From an uncultured Actinomycetes bacterium (GTDB lineage Bacteria; Actinomycetota; Thermoleophilia; RBG-16-64-13), in assembly GCA_963713545.1 (NCBI GenBank), contig CAVQME010000001.1:587346-651345 (forward strand): DNA of 64,000 nucleotides. Direction: 5' to 3'. Position numbers and translations under genes: made by a program. Shown here in pieces: positions 35,049 to 55,592 of this stretch. How positions within the stretch are numbered: the stretch's first letter is position 1; the number at the start of each line of letters is the position of its first letter. Below the pieces are notes generated by a model. That model saw nothing but the letters and a program-made list of their open reading frames with translations. It ran no database searches and had not been told where the DNA came from.

Positions 35049-38000
35049 TCAGGAGGCACGCGCGACCTCCACCGTCACCGGCAGTCCGTTGACCTTCAGG
35101 TCTTCCCGGAACCAATTCTCCGCGTCCCCTGGAGCGGCGCCGGCGCCGTTTTCCGCGGCGGCGGTGGCACCGCTTACAGCCGCGGCGGCGGTTTCGTCGA
35201 CCGCGTCCTGCCCGGCCACCTCCAGACTCACGGCCAGGGTCTCTTTCTTCACCCAGTCGCCGTGCGCTGCCAGCATGTCCGCGACCTCCGCAGGACCGGC
35301 GATACGCAGGTGGATGCGATCGTCGATCTCGAAGTCAGCGGCTTTGCGCGTGTTCTGGATGTGATGAACGAGCTCGCGAGCCAGACCCTCGCGCAGCAGC
35401 TCAGGAGAGAGCCGGGTGGAGATGGCGACAGCGATCGCACCCTCGCGCTCGACCTGGAAGCCTTCCCGCTCGCTGGTCTCCACAACGAAGTCGTCGGGGC
35501 TGAACTCGTAGTCGTGGCCCTGCACCTTCACCGTCACCGAGTGACCGCCAGCCAGCCGGTCTCCGGTCTCGTCCGCCGGGAGGGCGGCCACGGCCGCCGC
35601 GACCGCGGGCATGTTCTTGCCGAACTTCGGCCCAAGAGTACGGTAATTAGGCTTGACGACGTAGCTCACCAGCTCGCTCGCCGATTCCACGTATTCGATA
35701 GCTTTCACGTTGAGCTCTTCGGCCACGACGGCAGCCAGGCTCTGGACGGCCACACGCTCCTTGTCCCGAGAGGCGACCACGGCCACCTCGATCGGCTGGC
35801 GGGTCTTGATCTGGGCGGAATTACGGGCGGCACGTCCAAGGTTCACCACTTGCCGCGCGACCGCCATCCGGAAGGAGAGATCTTCGTCGACAAGGGCTTC
35901 GTCGGCGACGGGCCAATCCACAAGATGCACGGACTCCGGCACTTCCGGCAAACGCTCGGCCACCAGGTTCCGATAGAGCTCCTCGGCCAGGAACGGCGTG
36001 AAAGGCGCGAGAACCTCCGCCAGCGTCACCAGGCACTCGTTCAACGTGAGGTAGGCGGCGATCTTGTCCTGGTCGGCTTCGCTCTTCCAGAAACGGCGGC
36101 GACTCCGGCGCACATACCAGTTGGAAAGCTCATCGACGAACTCGGCGATGGCGCGCCCGGCGCCGAAGGCATCATAGGCGTCGAGCTCCGCGGTCACCTT
36201 CTTCAGGAGCAACTGGAGGTCCCCGATGATCCAGCGGTCCATCAGAGTGCGTTCGGCCACGGGCACGTGATGCTCCGCCGGGTCGAAGCCGTCGATATTG
36301 GCATAGAGCGTGTAGAACGAGTAGGTGTTCCAGAGAGTGAGCATGAACTTGCGGACCACCTCGTCCACATTCTCCGGCCCGAAGCGGCGAGGGAACCAGG
36401 GGGAACTGACGGTGAACAGGTACCAGCGCAGGGCATCGGCGCCCTGCTTGCCGAGGATGATCCAAGGATCTACCACGTTGCCCAGGCGCTTGGACATCTT
36501 GCGACCCTCGCCGTCCAGGATATGACCCAAGCACAGAACGTTTCGGTAGCAGGTGTGCCCGCTGAGCAGGGCGCTGATGGCAAGGAGGCTGTAGAACCAT
36601 CCCCGAGTCTGGTCGATGGCCTCACAAATGAAGTCCGCCGGGAACCGTCTCTCGAACGTCTCATGATTCTCGAACGGATAGTGCCACTGCGCCACCGGCA
36701 TCGAGCCCGAGTCGAACCAGGCATCGATAACAGCCTCGACCCGGCGGGCTTCGGCCCCACACTCGGGGCAGGCAAACGTGATCTGATCCACGTACGGCCG
36801 GTGGAGCTCCAGGTCGGAGAGATCAAGGCCGGTGAGCTGGCTCAACTCGGTTCGGAAGCCGACCACCGTGTCATGTCCGCTAGGGCAGCGCCACACGGGC
36901 AGAGGCGTGCCCCAGTAGCGGTCCCGGGAAAGCGACCAGTCGATGTTGTTCTCCAGCCATTTCCCAAAGCGCCCGTGCTTGAGATGCTCGGGATACCATG
37001 TGATCTCTTCGTTGGCCGCAAGCACGGCGTCCTTGCGCGCGGTGGTGCGCACGTACCAGGAGGATCTGGCGTAGTAGATGAGAGGCGTGTCGCAGCGCCA
37101 GCAGTACGGGTAGTTGTGCTCGTAGAGCTCGCGGCTGTAGAGCAAGCCGCGGAAATCGAGGTCGTCCATGATGCCGGCGTCAGCGTCCTTGACGAACACA
37201 CCCGCCCACGGAGTGATCTCGGCGGTGAAGCGGGCCTCCTCGTCCACCGGCATGACGACCGGCAGGTCATTGGCCTGGCCCGCGATCATGTCGTCGGCCC
37301 CGAAGGCGGGAGCGATGTGAACGATGCCGGTCCCCTCATGGGTGGCCACGAAGTCGCCGGCGATCACGCGCCAGGCCGGCTTGTCCGGCTCGACGAAATC
37401 ATAGGGAGCCCGGTAATGGCGTCCCACCAGCACCGAGCCCGCGAAGGTCTCCTCCACGACTGCGTCGGGGCCGAGAACAGCGGCAACAAGGTCGGCTGCC
37501 AGAATCAGAAACTCGCCTCCTAAGCGAGCGCGGGCGTACTTGATGTCGGCACCCACTGCCGCCGCTACGTTGGAGATGAGGGTCCACGGGGTGGTGGTCC
37601 AGACCAAGAGGCTGATCGGCAGACCATCCTGAGTCGCGTCCGCCTCCGAGGCCGGGGCGCCGTCGCCACCGCCGTCTGTCGCGGCGCCGACCACAGCGCC
37701 GACCGGCACATAGCCCGCCGGGTACAGTGGAAACCGCACGTAGACCGAGGGATCCGTGACCATCTGATATCCGGATGCGACTTCGTGCGACGACAGGGCG
37801 GTGCCGCAGCGGGGGCAGTAGGGCACTACCTTGTACCCTTCGTACAGAAGCCCCTGTCTGTCGAACTCCGAAAGGATCCACCAGACCGACTCGATGTACT
37901 CGTTGCTCATGGTCATGTACGGGTCGTCCAGATCGAGCCACATGCCTATCCGCTCGGTCATGCGGTTCCATTCGTCCACGTAGGCGGTCACCGACTCCCT

Positions 38001-38369
38001 GCACAGCCGATTGAACTCGGCAACACCGTAGGCCTCGATCTGCTCCTTGTGATCGAAGCCGAGTTGTCTCTCGATCTCCAGCTCCACCGGCAGGCCATGG
38101 CAGTCCCACCCCGCCTTACGGCCCACGAAGTAGCCGCGCATGGTCTTGTAGCGGGGATAGATGTCCTTGAACACCCGGGCCAGCACATGATGGACACCAG
38201 GCTTGCCGTTAGCCGTCGGAGGACCTTCGTAGAACACCCACTCGGGATTGCCGGCGCGCAACTCGAGGCTCTTCTCAAAAATGCGGCGTTCCTTCCACCA
38301 GGCCAGGATCCGCTCCTCGAGGGCGGGGAAACTCTGCCCTGTGTCCACGTGCCGATAACGACCTGCCAT
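35049..38369 (-). CDS. ileS: Isoleucine--tRNA ligase (IleRS, long type)
   Basis: Class I aaRS HIGH-like (PTANGKPGVHH) and KMSKS (KMSKRLGN) motifs, with CP1 editing and a C-terminal Zn-binding region. The internal start MAGRYRH has a GGAGGG RBS. The 1138-aa ORF-track N-terminus would overlap the T-box terminator. Confidence 0.9.
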   Translation of the reverse strand: MAGRYRHVDTGQSFPALEERILAWWKERRIFEKSLELRAGNPEWVFYEGPPTANGKPGVHHVLARVFKDIYPRYKTMRGYFVGRKAGWDCHGLPVELEIERQLGFDHKEQIEAYGVAEFNRLCRESVTAYVDEWNRMTERIGMWLDLDDPYMTMSNEYIESVWWILSEFDRQGLLYEGYKVVPYCPRCGTALSSHEVASGYQMVTDPSVYVRFPLYPAGYVPVGAVVGAATDGGGDGAPASEADATQDGLPISLLVWTTTPWTLISNVAAAVGADIKYARARLGGEFLILAADLVAAVLGPDAVVEETFAGSVLVGRHYRAPYDFVEPDKPAWRVIAGDFVATHEGTGIVHIAPAFGADDMIAGQANDLPVVMPVDEEARFTAEITPWAGVFVKDADAGIMDDLDFRGLLYSRELYEHNYPYCWRCDTPLIYYARSSWYVRTTARKDAVLAANEEITWYPEHLKHGRFGKWLENNIDWSLSRDRYWGTPLPVWRCPSGHDTVVGFRTELSQLTGLDLSDLELHRPYVDQITFACPECGAEARRVEAVIDAWFDSGSMPVAQWHYPFENHETFERRFPADFICEAIDQTRGWFYSLLAISALLSGHTCYRNVLCLGHILDGEGRKMSKRLGNVVDPWIILGKQGADALRWYLFTVSSPWFPRRFGPENVDEVVRKFMLTLWNTYSFYTLYANIDGFDPAEHHVPVAERTLMDRWIIGDLQLLLKKVTAELDAYDAFGAGRAIAEFVDELSNWYVRRSRRRFWKSEADQDKIAAYLTLNECLVTLAEVLAPFTPFLAEELYRNLVAERLPEVPESVHLVDWPVADEALVDEDLSFRMAVARQVVNLGRAARNSAQIKTRQPIEVAVVASRDKERVAVQSLAAVVAEELNVKAIEYVESASELVSYVVKPNYRTLGPKFGKNMPAVAAAVAALPADETGDRLAGGHSVTVKVQGHDYEFSPDDFVVETSEREGFQVEREGAIAVAISTRLSPELLREGLARELVHHIQNTRKAADFEIDDRIHLRIAGPAEVADMLAAHGDWVKKETLAVSLEVAGQDAVDETAAAAVSGATAAAENGAGAAPGDAENWFREDLKVNGLPVTVEVARAS

Positions 38370-38454
38370 CAACCCTCCTCGTCGCAGCCATCCCCGGGCG
38401 AAGCCGACACTGGCGCGTCCGGCACGCACCGCCGGTGGTGCCCCATCGCGCAGC

Positions 38455-38870
38455 CTACTCCACAAACAAAATACGCCCCGTCCCGCGCTGCGCCTGCCGG
38501 CGGACCTCGCCGGGGCGCTCGTCGGGTTCCACGACCATCGGAGGATGCATCGGCGGCCGCCAGATCACCGCCGGCGATCGCCGCTCACCTGTCCGCCGAC
38601 TTCTCTTCGCGGAACCGGAGCGCGTAGGGACGGGACGTTACCCGCGGTACCACCCTACTTGGCCGTGGGCAGCCGCGCCCCGAGGCGCCGGCTGCGCTTC
38701 TCCCGGTAGCACCACATCTCTGCGGCGCCGCCCGGGGCAGCCCCCTCAGCGGACGCTCCACCCGTTAGATCGACCATCCGGCCAGGTCCACTGGGTGCGA
38801 GCCTAGCGCTGCCTTCCCCGCTCATGTAACCTAGCGGAGCCGGCCGGCTCGACCGTTCGAGTGGCGGCTC
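38455..38870 (-). promoter_or_regulatory. T-box riboswitch leader of ileS (antiterminator T-box motif + intrinsic terminator)
   Basis: The reverse-strand sequence contains the canonical T-box AGUAGGGUGGUACCGCGGG (forward 38641-38659). About 120 nt downstream there is a GC hairpin (GCCCCG...CGGGGC, forward 38476-38519) followed by UAUUUUGUUUG. This lies ~90 nt upstream of the ileS start. Confidence 0.7.
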
Positions 38871-47743: not shown

Positions 47744-50071
47744 ATGGAGCGCACACAGACCGGTCCGGCATCAGACAGACGACGCCTGCTCCAGCTGCGT
47801 TCGCCACTCCGACATCTGGGCACGCGACCTGGCGGCGCGACAGGCCTCGCGTCCGTCTGCGCACTCCTTGCTCTGAGTCTCGCCATCGTTGGCTGCACTG
47901 ACGCGGGATCCCCCACCACCGCATCCGGCCCCTCCGGAGGCGCGGCCCCCGTGGTCACGAGCGAAAGCCCTTCCACCAGCACCTCCGGCCCGGCCGGGAC
48001 CGCCACGTCCGGAGGAGTCGCGCCAGCCGTTTTGACCGGCCCGTACAAAGAGCCGGATTACTTGGATCCTCAGCCGGTGGACCTGACCTCGATCTCCAAT
48101 CTCGACAAGGCGGGTCTGTCCGACGCCGAGAAGCAGGTGCTGGCGCGGCAGAGCTTCGTGGCCGTGGCCGAGCCGCCCGAGGAGGGGTCCTGGAAGTTCT
48201 GGCAGGTCTACGAGGCCGCCCGCTACGCCGGCCTACCCCTGTTGGTGACCACCGACTCCGTCCTCAATACCTATCACGGTCTTTTCGATACCCTGCTCCA
48301 GCGGATGGAGGAGGCAGCGCTGTTCGAGCAGGCCGTTACTATGACGGAGGCCTTGTACTCTGCCGCCTCCGACCAATTGAATGCCGCGACCGACCCCACA
48401 GTCAGGGAAGAGGCCGGCCTCAACATGGCCTACTTCGCCGTCGCGAAGGCGCTGCTGACAGGCACGAACCAGCTCCCCGGCATAGTCACGGGAGAGGGAG
48501 CGGAGACGTTGAGAGCCGCCCTCGACCTTGCCGACAAGGAGGTCGCCTTGATCGAGGCGGCCGGCGGTACCGAAGAGTCCCCCATCCTCGGTTACACCGA
48601 AGACTACAGCCAGTACAAGCCGCGCGGTCACTACACCCGCAGCGAGACCCTCCAGCGTTACTTCAAAGCGATGATGTGGTTCGGCCACACGGGCTACTTC
48701 ATCAATCCGCGCAGCCCGGACATCACCGAAGAGGAGGCGGCCAGCCTGACCCGGCGCGCCATCCTCATCGCCTCGTCCCTGAACGGCTCGACCAAAGAAG
48801 CGTGGCAGGCGATCTACGAACCCACGAGCTTCCTGGTCGGCCGGGCAGATGATCTGACCGTCGACGATATGCGGCAGGTGCTGCAGCAGGTGTTCGGCAC
48901 GGCCCAGCCCGCCCCAGACGACCTTGCCGACGCCGGGAAGATCGCGACCGTCCGGGGGGAACTGAACAAGCTCCCCGCTCCCAAGATCCTCTCGGCCGTG
49001 GTCCGCGCGCCGGGCGATACCGAGAACCGCGAGGAGAACGAGCGCAGCTTCCGGGTCATGGGACAGCGCTACATCCCCGACTCCTACGCCTTCCAGCAAC
49101 TGGTGTGGGCCTACGTGGGCGAAGAGCAGCCACCCGAGGCGAAACGCGACCTTCCCATGGGTCTCGACATAATGACGGTGCTCGGCAGCGACCAGGCCTA
49201 TAGGCTAGAGACAGAAGACTACGACCAAGATCGCTACACGAACTGGGAGCAGCAGATCAAAAAGGTGAACGGCGAGTTCGTGGCGCGCACCGCCGATCTG
49301 TGGCCGGCGAACCTCTACACCGGCTGGCTCGAGTCCCTGCAACGCGTGATGGCGTTCCCGGCCGACGGCGCCCCCGACTTCATGAAGTCCCGGGTGTGGG
49401 CCCGCAAGAGCCTGAACGTGGCCCTGGGCAGTTGGACGGAGCTGCGGCACGACACCATCCTCTACGCCAAGCAGTCGGTGACCGCGGAAGGTGACGGAGG
49501 CGAGAAGCCGAAGGTAGCGGGATACGTGGAGCCGTATCCGGCCTTCTACGCCAAGATCGCCGAGTTGGCCACCACGCTGCGTCAAGGCCTCCTCGACTAT
49601 GGCTTGATCGATTCCGAATCCGCCAACAAGTTGGAGATGATGATCGAACTGGCCGACACCTTGGCCACGATCGCCGAGAAGGAGTTGGCGGGCGAGGAGC
49701 TCACCTTGGACGAGGAGGCGACGATTGCCGGGTACGGACACTATCTGGAGACCCTGGAGCAGTTCGACGACGAGGTGGAGGGGCGGACGCTCTCACCCAC
49801 GGCCGAGAAAAGCCCGCTGGCAGCCGACGTGCACACCAGCTACAACTCCGACCTGGCGTTGGAAGAGGCGACCGGGTATCCACTTGTCCTGTACACAGCC
49901 TTTGAGCTTGGCGGGAAGCTGCAGCTGTTCGCCGGAGCCTCTTACGCCTATTACGAGTTCACCGTCCCTCTGGCAGAACGGCTCACCGACGAGGAGTGGG
50001 TGGCACAGCTGGACTCCGGCCAAGCCCCCCCACGCCCCGCCTGGACCGACGAGTGGATCGTGGGGGACTAA
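47744..50071 (+). CDS. DUF3160 family secreted lipoprotein
   Basis: Tat-like RRRLLQL plus lipobox IVGC, a Ser/Thr/Gly-rich linker, and the DUF3160 signature (PRGHYTRSETLQRYFKAMMWFG). Confidence 0.7.
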   Translation: MERTQTGPASDRRRLLQLRSPLRHLGTRPGGATGLASVCALLALSLAIVGCTDAGSPTTASGPSGGAAPVVTSESPSTSTSGPAGTATSGGVAPAVLTGPYKEPDYLDPQPVDLTSISNLDKAGLSDAEKQVLARQSFVAVAEPPEEGSWKFWQVYEAARYAGLPLLVTTDSVLNTYHGLFDTLLQRMEEAALFEQAVTMTEALYSAASDQLNAATDPTVREEAGLNMAYFAVAKALLTGTNQLPGIVTGEGAETLRAALDLADKEVALIEAAGGTEESPILGYTEDYSQYKPRGHYTRSETLQRYFKAMMWFGHTGYFINPRSPDITEEEAASLTRRAILIASSLNGSTKEAWQAIYEPTSFLVGRADDLTVDDMRQVLQQVFGTAQPAPDDLADAGKIATVRGELNKLPAPKILSAVVRAPGDTENREENERSFRVMGQRYIPDSYAFQQLVWAYVGEEQPPEAKRDLPMGLDIMTVLGSDQAYRLETEDYDQDRYTNWEQQIKKVNGEFVARTADLWPANLYTGWLESLQRVMAFPADGAPDFMKSRVWARKSLNVALGSWTELRHDTILYAKQSVTAEGDGGEKPKVAGYVEPYPAFYAKIAELATTLRQGLLDYGLIDSESANKLEMMIELADTLATIAEKELAGEELTLDEEATIAGYGHYLETLEQFDDEVEGRTLSPTAEKSPLAADVHTSYNSDLALEEATGYPLVLYTAFELGGKLQLFAGASYAYYEFTVPLAERLTDEEWVAQLDSGQAPPRPAWTDEWIVGD

Positions 50072-50557: not shown

Positions 50558-53500
50558 CTAGGCGCACTTGGAATAGCCGCACGAACGGCAGACTACGCAC
50601 CCGCCCTCGTGCTCCACCGCTCCGCCACAGTCGGGACAGGCGCCCTGCGCCAGCGCTATGGGGATCTCCAGCTGACCCACGGTCTTGCCGCCGTTGCCGC
50701 TGGCGAGGTGGTACTTGTCGGCCAGAGCCTTGCCTATGGCGTCGGGGCAGGAAAGTATCTGATTGGGCCCGAATCCGAGCGGCACATGGCAGCGGATGCC
50801 CTTGAGCTGCTTGACGATCTTGTCGGGCGGAACCCCGTAGCGGAAGGCCAGGGAGATCAGTCGGCCGATAGCTTCGGTGGACGCCGAGGCGCAGCCCCCG
50901 GCCTTGCCCATATTTGCGAAGACTTCCCTGGGGCCGAAGTCGTCTTCGTTGACGGTGACATACAGACTGCCGCACCCAGTCACCTTCTCCCGAGTCTCTC
51001 CGCGCAGCACGGGAGAGCGACTAGGCCGTACCGGCATGACAGCGGTACCCTGGGGGCCGAGCTCCATCTGCACGGCCTGGCCGGTCTCGGCTCCCTTGCG
51101 CTTCACCTCGCCGATGTTCAGCACCTGCTCCTGCCGGGAGCCATCGCGATAGATGGTGACCCCTTTGACCCCGAGTTCGTAGGCGAGTAGGTAGACGCGC
51201 TCCACGTCTTCGGGCCGAGCCTGGTTGGGGAAGTTGACCGTCTTGGACACGGCGTTGTCGACGTCGTCTTGGAAAGCGGCCTGCATGCGGATATGCCATT
51301 CAGGAGACACGTCGTGGGCAGTGACGAATACCTTCTTGAGGTCCTCGGGCACGTCCATGTCGTGCAGCCCGCCGATAGTCGCGATGCTCTTCATGAGGTC
51401 GTCTGAGTAGAGACCGCGCTGCTTGAGCACCTCCTCGAGCGCTGGATGGGCCTCGGGAAGCTCGGTGTTATCCATCACGTTGCGGATGAACGCCAGGGCG
51501 AAAATAGGCTCCACTCCGCTGGAGCAGCCGGCGATGATAGAGATAGTGCCGGTTGGAGCGATAGTGGTGAGGGTGGCGTTGCGCACCTCCCTAACCTTGG
51601 CCTTCCAGGTGCTGCTCTCCCAGTTGGGGAAGACTCCCCTGTCGCGCGCCAGGTCTTCCGAGGCCTTGATGGCCTCCTCGTGGACGAAACCCATCAGCTC
51701 ATGCGCGAGCTTGATGGCGCCGTCGGAATCGTAGGCGATGCCAAGCTCTACCAGCATGTCGGCCCACCCCATGACCCCCAGCCCGACCTTGCGGTTTCCT
51801 TTGGTCATCCTATCGATCTCGGGCAAGGGATACCGGTTCATGTCGATGACGTTATCGAGGAAATGGACGCCGGTGCGCGTCACCCGGCGGAGGCGCTCCC
51901 AATCCACGGCGCCGTCCTTGACCATGACGGCGAGGTTGATGGAGCCGAGATTGCAGCTTTCGTAGGGCAGAAGAGGTTGCTCACCACAGTTTGATATGAC
52001 GATACCATTGCCGATGAAGGAATGGGTCAGGGGTTCGGTCAGATCAAAGACCGCTTCAACGCCTTCGGGAACGACTGCTTCCACACGCGCGACGAACCGC
52101 TCCGAGTAGGGTCCGCGTTTGTAGCCGGCGACCGTCCGAGTCAGCGCGGCCATCTTCGCCCTGCTCAAGAACCCGACCTCGTCCGCGAAGCGGAGGAGGC
52201 TCCCACTGGCGACATGCAGTTCGTGAACCGGACGCACCTGGTATCGCTTCATACCTCCCTTGCCGTCGGGCAGCAGGGCGGTATCCCGTCCCCTCTTACG
52301 GTCTCGGAAGATTCGGCTGAAAATGCCAAAGTTGAGCAGGATGCGCTGTACATCCTGCAGCAAGTCGAGACCGACCGAGGTCAAACGCACCGCACGTCCG
52401 TTGCGAGGCTGGTCTAGCACAGTCCCATCCGCAGTAAACAAGGCCTGCAAGAATCCGCGCTGCATATCCTCACAACCCCACAAGACCGGCTCGGGTACCA
52501 GCAGTTTCTCGTCGACCAGACCGTACTCCTCGGCGATCTCGCGCAGCCGCACCGATTGGACCCGGGTCTCGTTTCGTTCAGCCACGGCGACACCCGTGCT
52601 CGAGCAGGCGCCACCGCGCGAGGGACGCACCACCGCCTCCACCGCCCGGCGGAAGGCGGGGGCAAGCTCTTGCTCCTCGCCCCAGAACGAGAGCACCGCC
52701 CGGTCGGATTTGACCGTGCCGTCGCCCACCAGCCAGCCCAGGACTCGTCCCAGTTCCAGTGAGCCTTCGCTGCCAAACCCCCCTTTGCGGTTGAGCACGT
52801 GCACCTCGTCCCCGATGACGAGGTCGCCCGCCGGCACCCACCCCCGTTCAGTCATGATCTTGTGATCGGGCGTCACCCGGATCTCGTAGCCCTCCCTGGT
52901 GGTGACCCGCACCACCTGCTTGTCGCCGCTATAGAACACCGGTGACGCGTCGACCAGAGATCCAACGGCCGCCCCGCGGGTCCCTCCCCCGGCTGCCTTC
53001 TTGGTCGCACCCGCCGCCATGCGCCCATCGACCGTGGCCTGGACCGATTCGCCATTCAAGAAGAGGTCGAGGGCGCGCACCAGTCCCCAGCCGGTGTAAA
53101 CCAGGGTGTCCCCGGTAATGCAAGGGTTGGTCGACTCGATCTCACCCAGCTTCGGCGTGGGGTTGTCCCGATTCAGCCGATCTAGAAAGACGATGCCCGG
53201 CTCGCCGTTCTTCCAGGCCAGTTCGACGATGAGATCGAAGATCTGGCGGGCGTTCAACCGCCCTACCTCAGTCATATCCCGGGGGTTCCGCAACGCATAG
53301 TCCTCGCCCGCCAGCACCGCTCCCATGAACTCCTCGGTGACCCCCACGGAGATGTTGAAGTTGTTGAGAATATGCTCGTCTTCTTTGGCCCGGATGAACT
53401 CCACGATATCGGGGTGGTCGACCCGCAATATGCCCATGTTGGCACCCCGGCGCGTGCCTCCCTGCTTGATGGTCTCTGTGGCCATGTCGAACACCCGCAT

Positions 53501-53974
53501 GAACGACACCGGCCCACTCGCCACACCCATGGTGGAGCGGACCAGATCGTTCTTGGGGCGCAACCGGCTGAAGCTGAATCCCGTGCCCCCACCCGACTGA
53601 TGCACCAACGCGGCGTCGCGGATCGCGGTGAAGATGGAATCCATGCTGTCCTCAACCGGCAGGACGAAGCAAGCGGACAGCTGCTGTAGCTCGCGCCCTG
53701 CGTTCATGAGAGTCGGCGTGTTGGGCAGGAACTCCAGTTGCGCCATCACCTCGAAGAACTCGGAGACGGTGGCATCGAGAGAGGCATCGGGATGGTAGGT
53801 GAGGTCGGCTTGGGCAATGTTCTCCGCCACCCGCGCGAACATGTCCGCGGCACTCTCGAGAGGTTCACCACTCTCGGTGCGTTTCAAGTACCGCCTCTGT
53901 AGGACCTTCTTGGCACTAGGGGAGAGCCTCTTGTCCAACTCGGCCGCAGCAGCACTCAGTTCAGCGACGGTCAT
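50558..53974 (-). CDS. nrdJ: Adenosylcobalamin-dependent ribonucleoside-triphosphate/diphosphate reductase, class II (NrdJ), intein-containing
   Basis: The extein (~760 aa) has the class II RNR catalytic motif NPC|GEQP interrupted by an intein, and a C-terminal Zn-ribbon (CPDCGG...CVVCRSCG). It is preceded by nrdR. Confidence 0.9.
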   Translation of the reverse strand: MTVAELSAAAAELDKRLSPSAKKVLQRRYLKRTESGEPLESAADMFARVAENIAQADLTYHPDASLDATVSEFFEVMAQLEFLPNTPTLMNAGRELQQLSACFVLPVEDSMDSIFTAIRDAALVHQSGGGTGFSFSRLRPKNDLVRSTMGVASGPVSFMRVFDMATETIKQGGTRRGANMGILRVDHPDIVEFIRAKEDEHILNNFNISVGVTEEFMGAVLAGEDYALRNPRDMTEVGRLNARQIFDLIVELAWKNGEPGIVFLDRLNRDNPTPKLGEIESTNPCITGDTLVYTGWGLVRALDLFLNGESVQATVDGRMAAGATKKAAGGGTRGAAVGSLVDASPVFYSGDKQVVRVTTREGYEIRVTPDHKIMTERGWVPAGDLVIGDEVHVLNRKGGFGSEGSLELGRVLGWLVGDGTVKSDRAVLSFWGEEQELAPAFRRAVEAVVRPSRGGACSSTGVAVAERNETRVQSVRLREIAEEYGLVDEKLLVPEPVLWGCEDMQRGFLQALFTADGTVLDQPRNGRAVRLTSVGLDLLQDVQRILLNFGIFSRIFRDRKRGRDTALLPDGKGGMKRYQVRPVHELHVASGSLLRFADEVGFLSRAKMAALTRTVAGYKRGPYSERFVARVEAVVPEGVEAVFDLTEPLTHSFIGNGIVISNCGEQPLLPYESCNLGSINLAVMVKDGAVDWERLRRVTRTGVHFLDNVIDMNRYPLPEIDRMTKGNRKVGLGVMGWADMLVELGIAYDSDGAIKLAHELMGFVHEEAIKASEDLARDRGVFPNWESSTWKAKVREVRNATLTTIAPTGTISIIAGCSSGVEPIFALAFIRNVMDNTELPEAHPALEEVLKQRGLYSDDLMKSIATIGGLHDMDVPEDLKKVFVTAHDVSPEWHIRMQAAFQDDVDNAVSKTVNFPNQARPEDVERVYLLAYELGVKGVTIYRDGSRQEQVLNIGEVKRKGAETGQAVQMELGPQGTAVMPVRPSRSPVLRGETREKVTGCGSLYVTVNEDDFGPREVFANMGKAGGCASASTEAIGRLISLAFRYGVPPDKIVKQLKGIRCHVPLGFGPNQILSCPDAIGKALADKYHLASGNGGKTVGQLEIPIALAQGACPDCGGAVEHEGGCVVCRSCGYSKCA
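51989..53122 (-). mobile_element. Intein (378 aa) with LAGLIDADG homing-endonuclease domain inserted at the NrdJ active-site Cys
   Basis: It begins CITGDTLV after ...ESTNP and ends ...GIVISN followed by the C+1 Cys of CGEQPLLPYESCNLG. Two LAGLIDADG-like blocks are present: LGWLVGDGTV and LQALFTADGTV. Confidence 0.8.
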
Positions 53975-54432
53975 CTGATTCCCTCTTTCGCAAGTTGTTC
54001 AAGTTCCTGTTTAAATCCCTCGATGCTGTCGAACTGCCGGTAGACTGAGGCGAAGCGGATGTAGGCCACCAGATCCACTCCCTGCAGGCGCTCGAGCACC
54101 ATCTTACCGACCCGCTCGGACGTCACTTCGTACGCCGACTCCTCGCGCAATTCCCGCTCGATATCGGCGACGACGGCCTCCAGAGTCTCCAGCGGCACGT
54201 TCCGCTTCGCGCACGCCCGCATGAGCCCATGCAGCAGCTTGTCCGCATGGAAGAGCTGCGTGCTCCCGTCGCGCTTCACCACGGTGATGGGGATCTCTTC
54301 GATCTTCTCGTAGGTGGTGAAACGCTGGCCACAGCCGACGCACTCCCTCCGCCGGCGGATGGCTTCCTTGCTCTCGGTCTCGCGCGAGTCGATCACCTTG
54401 CTGTCGGGAAACCCGCAATACGGGCAGTTCAC
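53971..54432 (-). CDS. nrdR: Transcriptional repressor NrdR
   Basis: N-terminal Zn-ribbon CPYCG...CVGCGQRF and ATP-cone (VVKRDGSTQLFHADKL). It overlaps the nrdJ start. Confidence 0.9.
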   Translation of the reverse strand: MNCPYCGFPDSKVIDSRETESKEAIRRRRECVGCGQRFTTYEKIEEIPITVVKRDGSTQLFHADKLLHGLMRACAKRNVPLETLEAVVADIERELREESAYEVTSERVGKMVLERLQGVDLVAYIRFASVYRQFDSIEGFKQELEQLAKEGIR

Positions 54433-54523
54433 AGCCCCCCGTTTCCTCAGAAGTACGGCCGACGATGCCGACCCCCACCAGCGTACGCGCGGCTGGCTCC
54501 TCTTGGCGGGCTCCAGCGCAAGT

Positions 54524-54571
54524 GCACAATATGTGGTGTACTGGGGAATCCTACCACCCTATATATCGTTA
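54524..54571 (-). promoter_or_regulatory. Tandem NrdR boxes upstream of nrdR-nrdJ
   Basis: Two 16-bp palindromes match acaCwAtATaTwGtgt (GCACAATATGTGGTGT at 54524-54539; ACCCTATATATCGTTA at 54556-54571). They are spaced 32 bp apart, 90-140 bp upstream of nrdR. Confidence 0.6.
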
Positions 54572-54713
54572 CCGCAAGTCCTGCAGCAGCGTTGTCCCTC
54601 GCTTCTCGCAAGCGGAACCGGAAACGCCCTCTGTACGCTCTGAGCGCCCTTCCGGCCCTGAGTCGAGTCTCGTTCGCGCTCTAGGACTGGACTCGCCGAC
54701 GAGAGCCCGGCAT

Positions 54714-55592
54714 AATCCAAGCGTGGATGAACTTCTGCTTGTCGTCGAGGACGACCCCTCGCTGCGCCAGGTCATCACCTTGGGCCTGCAGGGCGAGGGA
54801 TACCGGGTGGTGACCGCGGAGGACGGTCTGTCGGCCTTGGTTGCCTTCGCCGAGCACCGGCCGGACCTAGTGTTGCTCGACATCATGCTGCCCGGCCTGG
54901 ACGGTTTCGAGGTCTGCCGGGAGCTGCGCAAGACCTCGCTCGTCCCAGTCATCATTCTCACGGCTCGGTCGTCCACTGTGGACGTGGTGGTCGGGCTCGA
55001 GTCAGGTGCTGACGACTACGTGACGAAGCCGTTCGAGTTCCCCGAGTTGAATGCCCGGGTGCGGTCGGTGCTGCGCCGCGCTTCGACAAGGACCGCCGCG
55101 GAGGACGCGGCGGCAAGCGCAAGAGCTGCGACCGGCGCGTCGGGGACGACCGAAGGTGTGGCCGGTGCCGCCGCCAGCGTCGCGCTCGGGCTCGTAGGCG
55201 ACGCCGCGACCGGGTCCAACACCGGCGTCCAGGCCGGGTCATCAGCCGACGCTGGGCCTGCAGTTGCGCCCGTCACCCCGCCGCTTACGCTCGGTCCTCT
55301 CACCATAGACACAGCCGCTTACCGCGTGATGCGAGGCGGCGACGAGATCCCCCTCACGGTGACCGAGTTCCGCCTTCTCTACGAGCTGGCCCGTCATGTC
55401 GGACAGGTGCTCACCCGTGACCAACTTCTCGAACTGGTGTGGGGCTACACCTATCTGGGCGACAGCCGTCTTGTGGATGTCCATGTGCAACGCCTGCGGA
55501 CGAAGATCGAGGAGGATCCGAGTCACCCACTGCTGATCCTCACGGTGCGGGGGGTCGGCTACCGGGCAGACCCTCCCGGGGGTGTGTCGTGA
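54714..55592 (+). CDS. OmpR/PhoB-family response regulator (with long Ala/Gly/Thr-rich interdomain linker)
   Basis: Receiver domain (LLLVVEDDPSL...LVLLDIMLPGLDG...KPF) and a winged-helix trans_reg_C domain (LTVTEFRLLYELARH...RLVDVHVQRLRTKIE). A GTG start at 54714 is preferred, because the longer ORF-track N-terminus overlaps the NrdR boxes. Confidence 0.8.
   Translation, partial: NPSVDELLLVVEDDPSLRQVITLGLQGEGYRVVTAEDGLSALVAFAEHRPDLVLLDIMLPGLDGFEVCRELRKTSLVPVIILTARSSTVDVVVGLESGADDYVTKPFEFPELNARVRSVLRRASTRTAAEDAAASARAATGASGTTEGVAGAAASVALGLVGDAATGSNTGVQAGSSADAGPAVAPVTPPLTLGPLTIDTAAYRVMRGGDEIPLTVTEFRLLYELARHVGQVLTRDQLLELVWGYTYLGDSRLVDVHVQRLRTKIEEDPSHPLLILTVRGVGYRADPPGGVS

Follow-up and report, generated by a model that had tools for sequence, protein, structure and literature searches.

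Evidence for a class 1 intein carrying a LAGLIDADG domain at the catalytic cysteine of an actinobacterial class II ribonucleotide reductase

How can a ribonucleotide reductase (RNR) become active when 378 residues are inserted directly in front of its catalytic cysteine? The question is raised by nrdJ, a gene for class II (B12-dependent) RNR on the minus strand of the window, by which we mean the whole 64-kb stretch of DNA from an uncultured Thermoleophilia-like actinobacterium that was analysed here. A first-pass annotation had noted that this NrdJ has 1138 aa instead of ~760 and had ascribed the excess to a LAGLIDADG-type intein, a reading on which Pfam, NCBIfam and the fold of a structural model agree. 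In our assessment the insert, which lies directly N-terminal to the NrdJ radical Cys, is very probably an intein of class 1 in which a LAGLIDADG endonuclease domain is embedded. The parts of the gene are as follows.

50558-53974, minus strand: nrdJ precursor open reading frame (ORF), class II (B12-dependent) RNR with one probable intein (ORF list, Pfam, NCBIfam)
53123-53974, minus strand: N-extein, residues 1-284, ending ...IESTNP, with the Pro(-1) codon at 53123-53125 (TNP-C junction identical in 33 intein-bearing homologues)
51989-53122, minus strand: probable intein, 378 aa, 41.0 kDa, Cys1...Ser377-Asn378, NrdJ residues 285-662 (translation, Pfam, NCBIfam, model)
50558-51988, minus strand: C-extein, residues 663-1138 plus stop, starting with Cys+1 at 51986-51988 (Thermotoga maritima NrdJ alignment; TSCPD domain)

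The insert and its insertion site

The precursor of 1138 aa (123.7 kDa) is encoded by a 3417-nt frame without interruption in the ORF list, and removal of the insert leaves a spliced NrdJ of 760 aa (1138 - 378) and 82.8 kDa. This is the length that the first-pass annotation expected, and the best NCBIfam model, NF006417 (B12-dependent RNR), has 759 positions; its match (1159.9 bits, cut-off 961) falls in two stretches, one on either side of the insert. The protein also matches TIGR02504 NrdJ_Z (721.5 bits, cut-off 399.95) and the Pfam families Ribonuc_red_lgN, Ribonuc_red_lgC and TSCPD. Family scores above the curated cut-offs, together with the N-x-C-x-E catalytic loop, place it among the class II (adenosylcobalamin-dependent) RNRs.

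Translation of 51989-53122 on the minus strand gives exactly 378 sense codons and zero stops (CITGDTLVYTGW...THSFIGNGIVISN). The insert starts CITGDTLVYT and ends SFIGNGIVISN; the residues before it are ...KLGEIESTNP and those after it CGEQPLLPYE, so that the coordinates, length and flanks given by the first-pass annotation (...IESTNP, ...IVISN, CGEQPLL) all hold, with the strand now specified. It splits the N-P-C-G-E loop precisely at the step from Pro(-1) to Cys. When the spliced 760-aa protein is aligned with T. maritima NrdJ (1xje/1xjk; E ~1e-122), Cys+1 falls on chain residue 322, in the loop N320-P-C322-G-E324, in agreement with the earlier placement at the class II catalytic Cys. Cys322 is the thiyl-radical cysteine of T. 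maritima NrdJ, and the loop is equivalent to N437/C439/E441 of Escherichia coli NrdA.

The boundaries can be read directly from related genes. A scan of one genome per species yielded 80 nrdJ loci: in the 47 that are intein-less, IESTNPCGEQPLL is contiguous with no break, while each of the remaining 33 has 354-416 extra aa placed precisely between TNP and CGE. The boundaries of the insert are therefore exact. The first-pass annotation had allowed that alignment might reveal a non-intein domain lacking the extein Cys; instead, homologous inteins occupy the same junction in the 33 loci and the Cys is present. Within Actinomycetota, the homologous inteins at this point are 50-78% identical.

The insert matches Pfam LAGLIDADG_3 (E 1.3e-20), Pfam Intein_splicing (E 4.4e-11) and NCBIfam intein_Nterm (E 1.9e-9), and by these E-values the family matches are far beyond chance. 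It also matches the intein parts of NCBIfam models for intein-containing DnaB, GyrA, RecA and Pyrococcus-type NrdJ. The last of these, NF006207, aligns in one unbroken stretch over NrdJ residues 131-791, crossing both junctions, and so must itself contain an intein at the same position. A PDB sequence search with the insert returned DnaB, RecA, RadA and VMA inteins.

An AlphaFold2 model of the intein, built on 33 homologues, reached a predicted local distance difference test score (pLDDT) of 91.9 and a predicted template modelling score (pTM) of 0.91. Its top Foldseek matches in the PDB are intein homing endonucleases (7qsu, 1dq3, 2cw7, 1vde), with E-values of 2.8e-18 for the TliVMA intein and 5.3e-16 for PI-PfuI, an RNR intein; PhoVMA, PI-TkoII and PI-SceI also match. 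Over this set the Foldseek E-values run from 2.8e-18 to 5e-12 and the template modelling (TM) scores from ~0.55 to 0.63, at a sequence identity of only 10-18%. The Intein_splicing match and the similarity of the model to intein crystal structures both indicate a HINT fold, and the two-part HINT and LAGLIDADG arrangement is that of PI-PfuI (the Pyrococcus furiosus RNR intein, PDB 1dq3), TliVMA/PhoVMA, PI-TkoII and PI-SceI. PI-PfuI (454 aa) and PI-TkoII (537 aa) are larger, and their extra DNA-recognition or stirrup regions are not evident in the 378-aa intein of the window. The sole low-confidence part of the model, around residues 41-58, falls in a short Gly/Ala/Lys-rich loop (RMAAGATKKAAGGGTRGAAVGS...) between blocks A and B (residues ~36-58; 52949-53017), which most alleles lack; a comparable, longer insert is found only in the close relative L003.

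A non-intein domain or a bacterial intein-like (BIL) domain was ruled out by Cys1, the TxxH motif, the terminal Asn, Cys+1, the conserved site and the contiguous intein-less alleles.

Allelic RNR ('RIR1') inteins are catalogued in InBase. They lie N-terminal to the thiyl-radical Cys of class I and class II RNRs, at the same point, N-x/C-x-E (the slash marking the insertion), and share with the window intein the Cys1/Cys+1 pair of class 1 and a LAGLIDADG endonuclease (Dassa et al. 2009, PMC2677866). The same study identifies the position N-terminal to the catalytic Cys as the commonest RNR intein point, which, with an allelic intein in 33 of the 80 related loci, justifies the earlier description of a classic hot-spot; RNR ranks second among bacterial proteins in intein richness (PMC4760082). 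Because its insertion spot is the best-known intein site of the RNR family, the intein is in this respect ordinary. What distinguishes it from the RIR1 inteins is a new sequence, its source in an uncultured Thermoleophilia-like actinobacterium, and a penultimate Ser for His. The metagenomic NrdJ-1 split intein (Dassa et al. 2009, PMC2677866) likewise has a class II NrdJ host and sits in the same active-site loop, but its insertion point is displaced by one residue, to the C-terminal side of the Cys, its halves are encoded by two genes, and its endonuclease is free-standing. Some related nrdJ genes (L023, L024, L028) have an additional intein in their N-terminal part, upstream of this site: each has two Intein_splicing stretches, L024 and L028 have two LAGLIDADG_3 stretches, and these two-intein proteins are 1550-1720 aa long. 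For L026, L029 and L038 a second intein is suggested by ORF length.

The intein of bnrdE in Bacillus phage SPbeta, reportedly described by Lazarevic et al. in 1998, is a more distant counterpart. As annotated in NC_001884, it is 29% identical to the window intein over 100% of the length (E 8e-34), lies at the equivalent site (SNL/CSE), has its domains in the same order and, ending in ...VTGN, is likewise without the penultimate His. It differs in its host, a class Ib NrdE of a Firmicutes prophage, in having Leu rather than Pro at -1, and in having Gly rather than Ser at the penultimate position.

Splicing residues and the penultimate serine

To judge whether such a protein would splice, one has to look at the residues that perform the reaction, which lie in the following blocks.

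53084-53122, minus strand: splicing block A (CITGDTLVYTGWG), with the Cys1 nucleophile at 53120-53122 (TIGR01445 intein_Nterm over residues 1-91)
52850-52891, minus strand: splicing block B (GYEIRVTPDHKIMT), with Thr84 and His87 of TxxH (conservation in alignment A1)
51989-52060, minus strand: splicing blocks F and G (VEAVFDLTEPLTHSFIGNG-IVISN), with Asp360, His367, the non-canonical Ser377 and the terminal Asn378 (DnaB mini-intein alignment)

Cys1, Thr84, His87, Asp360, His367, Asn378 and Cys+1 are all present. Cys1 opens the N-terminal motif CITGDTLVY (TIGR01445, E 1.9e-9); block B reads Thr84-Pro-Asp-His87, and across the 33 sequences of alignment A1 its His87 never varies and its Thr84 is conserved in at least 90%; and Asn378 is followed by Cys+1. 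Blocks F and G align with the C-terminus of a DnaB mini-intein, ...FDLTVPGLHNFVANNIIVHN, found in the PDB sequence search. The sole departure among the splicing residues is the penultimate position (block G:6), where the window has Ser377 (codon TCA) in place of His, as the first-pass annotation had pointed out. The penultimate His is a common assisting residue but not an absolute requirement for class 1 inteins.

This departure is no oddity of the window sequence. Among the window intein and the 33 allelic inteins (n = 34), the C-terminal dipeptide is HN in 20/34, SN in 8/34, AN in 2/34, GQ in 2/34, AQ in 1/34 and HQ in 1/34, and metagenomic protein matches have the same spread. C-terminal chemistry at the NrdJ catalytic-Cys insertion site is thus unusually variable. 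The terminal Gln for Asn (GQ, HQ, AQ) is seen in the allelic inteins L023, L028, L031 and L032, and Gly-Asn in L081 (phage SPbeta). The codons equivalent to that of Ser377 are TCA, TCG and TCC, with AGT in an archaeal allele, so that penultimate Ser arose at least twice. TCA is three substitutions from a His codon (CAY); TCG, TCC and AGT are at least two. A sequencing artefact or pseudogene as the source of Ser377 was ruled out by this codon distance, by Ser in L003 and L005 and Ala in L014, and by purifying selection on the exteins. Since Ser377 is a recurrent, long-maintained variant, found in 8/34 alleles, it is no evidence against splicing.

Published work leads in the same direction. Mycobacteriophage class 1 inteins without the penultimate His splice with Gly, Lys or Ser in block G, and the block F His can compensate (Kelley et al. 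2016, PMC5050341); splicing of inteins without this His is also attributed there to Chen, Benner & Perler 2000. The missing His is therefore not disqualifying. These phage inteins differ from the one in the window in their host proteins, insertion sites and phage-borne setting, but the window intein has the block F His, His367, for which compensation was proposed there, and by analogy His367 probably substitutes for the missing penultimate His. Because the catalytic residues are conserved and the exteins are under purifying selection, we conclude that the intein very probably splices.

In the mechanism that we propose, which is modelled on established intein chemistry, the 123.7-kDa precursor would be translated and its HINT domain would fold. 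Cys1, helped by block B Thr84 and His87, would then carry out an N-S acyl shift on the bond that joins it to Pro(-1), and Cys+1 would attack the thioester to give a branched intermediate. Cyclisation of Asn378 to a succinimide would release the 41-kDa intein, with His367 and Asp360 of block F taking over the help with Asn cyclisation that usually comes from the penultimate His, and an S-N shift would join IESTNP to CGEQPLL, yielding active 82.8-kDa NrdJ. A single cysteine would thus have two roles, as splicing nucleophile first and as radical carrier later, and for this reason the unspliced precursor could not be an active reductase.

Several points weigh against this picture. A Pro at -1 disfavours the first acyl shift. 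Evans et al. in 1999 reportedly found poor splicing in E. coli for an allelic mini-intein, that of Mth RIR1, with its native Pro-1. Owing to Pro(-1), splicing of the window intein may be slow or condition-dependent. According to Kelley et al. 2016 (PMC5050341), inteins of actinobacteria as a rule retain the penultimate His, which makes the Ser/Ala clade atypical for its phylum. Another RNR gene may lie elsewhere in the genome, beyond the 64-kb window, and this possibility makes it less compelling that the intein has to splice. Moreover, both splicing and DNA cleavage are predictions from sequence.

A natural Ser-Asn C-terminal variant, long kept in a probably essential gene, would join the inteins that function without a penultimate His, and could interest engineers of intein cleavage rates.

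The endonuclease domain, its history and rival explanations

The central part of the insert has the features expected of a homing endonuclease:

52118-52768, minus strand: LAGLIDADG homing-endonuclease domain, about intein residues 119-335, boundaries approximate (Pfam LAGLIDADG_3, alpha/beta pattern of the model, I-DmoI match)
52712-52753, minus strand: first LAGLIDADG motif (LGRVLGWLVGDGTV), putative catalytic Asp134 (G133, D134 and G135 at least 90% conserved)
52418-52459, minus strand: second LAGLIDADG motif (RGFLQALFTADGTV), putative catalytic Asp232 (D232 at least 90% conserved, G233 invariant)

The two dodecapeptide blocks named in the first-pass annotation are found at intein residues 128-137 (LGWLVGDGTV) and 225-235 (LQALFTADGTV), and the motifs LGWLVGD134G and ALFTAD232G each end in the acidic residue. 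The domain is modelled with high confidence, and Foldseek comparison of the model recovers the pseudo-dimeric alpha-beta-beta-alpha-beta-beta-alpha fold; taken alone, the middle domain matches I-DmoI (TM score of the target ~0.62-0.66) as well as the PI-PfuI and PI-SceI endonuclease domains. Judging from these motifs, the endonuclease is likely active. If so, it would cut intein-less nrdJ, with Asp134 and Asp232 as catalytic residues, at the joined sequence 5'-...ACCAACCC/TGYGGNGAGCA...-3', and repair of the break would insert a copy of the intein (homing). Indirect evidence for this comes from close relatives, some of which have the intein and some not, and from dN/dS of the domain (below). 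In the intein-less relative L021 the site reads 5'-GGCGAGATCGAGTCGACAAATCCA/TGCGGCGAGCAACCTCTACTTCCC-3'. The first-pass annotation had gone further and called the endonuclease intact: both putative catalytic Asp residues and purifying selection on the domain are indeed found, and on this evidence intactness is plausible.

The nearest genomes, assembled from metagenomes (MAGs), come from uncultured Thermoleophilia and Actinomycetota, and their nrdJ genes compare with that of the window as follows.

L005: extein identity ~93-96%, intein identity 78%
L014: extein identity ~88%, intein identity 68%
L003: extein identity ~83-87%, intein identity 74%
L021: extein identity 87.6%, no intein
L033: extein identity 84.6%, no intein

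In neighbour-joining trees the window intein (SN) groups with those of L003 (SN) and L014 (AN), and the extein tree has a matching clade; the penultimate His was therefore lost before these lineages split. The intein-less L021 and L033 nest among intein-bearing loci. GC content and third-position GC content (GC3) are 0.645 and 0.77 for the intein, against 0.61-0.63 and 0.81 for the exteins. A recent horizontal arrival is unsupported, given this closeness to the host gene and the mirrored trees. Instead, the sequences are consistent with a long residence: the intein appears to have been inherited mainly vertically in this clade, with occasional precise loss (or re-invasion).

The ratio of nonsynonymous to synonymous substitution rates (dN/dS) is 0.075-0.09 for the exteins of the window/L003/L014-clade genes. 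Such low values indicate that the host gene has been kept functional, and for this the insert has to be excised. For the endonuclease domain, compared with three to four relatives, dN/dS is 0.11-0.19; for the HINT-N splicing part it is 0.20-0.31. A caution applies to all these ratios: dS is 0.9-1.4, near saturation, so the values are rough.

In L005, the closest relative and a long-read MAG, the intein is split over two frames near residues 25-27 (L005:3853-4996) and the nrdJ ORF is broken; the frameshift may reflect an indel in the assembly and not a genuine pseudogene. Truncated ORFs similar to L005 occur in protein databases (P0020, P0100).

How far do these data discriminate among explanations? 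That splicing is intact and the endonuclease dead, as late in a homing cycle when the element is fixed, no empty targets are left and the domain is kept for folding, is a real if doubtful possibility. The mirroring of the extein tree, which speaks for long vertical residence, the GC and GC3 values near those of the exteins, with no sign of recent arrival, and degenerate first motifs in the allelic inteins of L002 (LGAGT), L004 (VGDSA), L008 (VGEST) and L024 (VAGGR), which reveal that decay does occur in the family, are all compatible with it, and selection on the domain could reflect folding for splicing, not DNA cleavage. However, both motifs in the window retain their Asp (GDG, ADG), the dN/dS of the domain is no higher than that of HINT-N, and the intein-less L021 and L033 imply that targets remain. 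Far less credible is a dead, non-splicing HINT-like domain or pseudogene that leaves NrdJ inactive, which we consider very improbable. The missing penultimate His, Pro at -1 and the frameshift in L005 would fit such a state, yet the 3417-nt frame is uninterrupted, every other splicing residue is in place, extein dN/dS is ~0.08 (strong purifying selection), the Ser/Ala state is kept in diverged relatives and the nrdR-nrdJ operon is intact; the L005 frameshift, coming from a long-read MAG, may itself be an assembly error.

A different possibility is co-option: the intein would have become a post-translational switch that gates splicing, and hence RNR activity, by redox or another signal. A Cys1-Cys+1 disulfide, or Asn cyclisation slowed by Ser377, are possible routes by which precursor could accumulate until conditions permit. 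With the insert in place the radical Cys is cut off from its loop, and the activities of precursor and product would thus differ absolutely; the loss of His is maintained across the clade; non-His penultimate residues tune splicing rate in phage inteins (PMC5050341); and conditional splicing is documented in other inteins (RadA, PMC4513877). But the same pattern is expected of a purely selfish element at a conserved site, the close relatives L021 and L033 do without the intein, which makes it dispensable, and Cys1/Cys+1 is the commonest intein nucleophile pair. We therefore regard co-option as improbable. Slightly more speculative still is the notion that the inteins of this clade form a conditional gate on deoxynucleoside triphosphate (dNTP) synthesis, with the loss of His, Pro(-1) and Cys1/Cys+1 together making splicing slow or dependent on redox state or a cofactor; were it true, active NrdJ would be released only under permissive conditions and the intein would no longer be merely selfish.

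A splicing class 1 intein with a likely active endonuclease thus remains our preferred reading, and it leaves current understanding unchanged. What is new is the sequence, from an undescribed actinobacterial lineage; the site, the HINT and LAGLIDADG architecture and variation without the penultimate His were already known. Presence and absence among close Thermoleophilia-like genomes neatly illustrate how an intein can persist and also be lost precisely. Annotations should list the gene as an nrdJ that contains an intein and has a mature product of 760 aa: public collections already include the identical precursor, named only 'ribonucleoside-diphosphate reductase alpha chain' or unnamed, and its database relatives are mostly fragmentary ORFs.

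The nrdR-nrdJ operon and neighbouring genes

Directly upstream of nrdJ lies nrdR, whose stop overlaps the nrdJ start codon (ATGA), which indicates that the two genes form one operon.

53971-54432, minus strand: nrdR, regulator of RNR genes (NCBIfam TIGR00244 NrdR, E 1.3e-56)
54555-54570, minus strand: palindrome AACGATATATAGGGTG, upstream of nrdR
54524-54539, minus strand: palindrome ACACCACATATTGTGC, upstream of nrdR

The two imperfect 16-bp palindromes (54524-54570, minus strand) start 31 bp apart and resemble tandem NrdR boxes; if these putative sites are NrdR boxes, the nrdR-nrdJ operon would be autoregulated. A cobalamin riboswitch or other RNA element near nrdJ was rejected as a candidate, a scan of the whole window at Rfam gathering thresholds having returned one tRNA only. 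At its other end, NrdJ terminates in a tail with six cysteines (50558-50640, minus strand). The tail resembles the zinc-binding Cys-rich C-terminal domain that serves electron delivery in many class II RNRs (Loderer et al. 2017, PMC5704485).

Elsewhere in the window, a 775-aa protein (47744-50071, plus strand) has an N-terminal signal- or lipoprotein-like segment and a Ser/Thr/Pro/Gly/Ala-rich linker, and returned no NCBIfam match at E <= 0.001. The stop-to-stop ORF at 35049-38465 (minus strand) has 1138 aa, the same length as the nrdJ precursor; a duplicate of nrdJ was ruled out, as its sequence motifs are those of an isoleucyl-tRNA synthetase, and the equal lengths are therefore a coincidence. 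At 54465-55592 (plus strand) lies an OmpR/MtrA-type response regulator ORF with an Ala/Gly-rich linker of ~60 residues between its receiver and DNA-binding domains. Its family match begins only at residue ~91, and its listed start is probably too far upstream, because it overlaps the nrdR promoter region.

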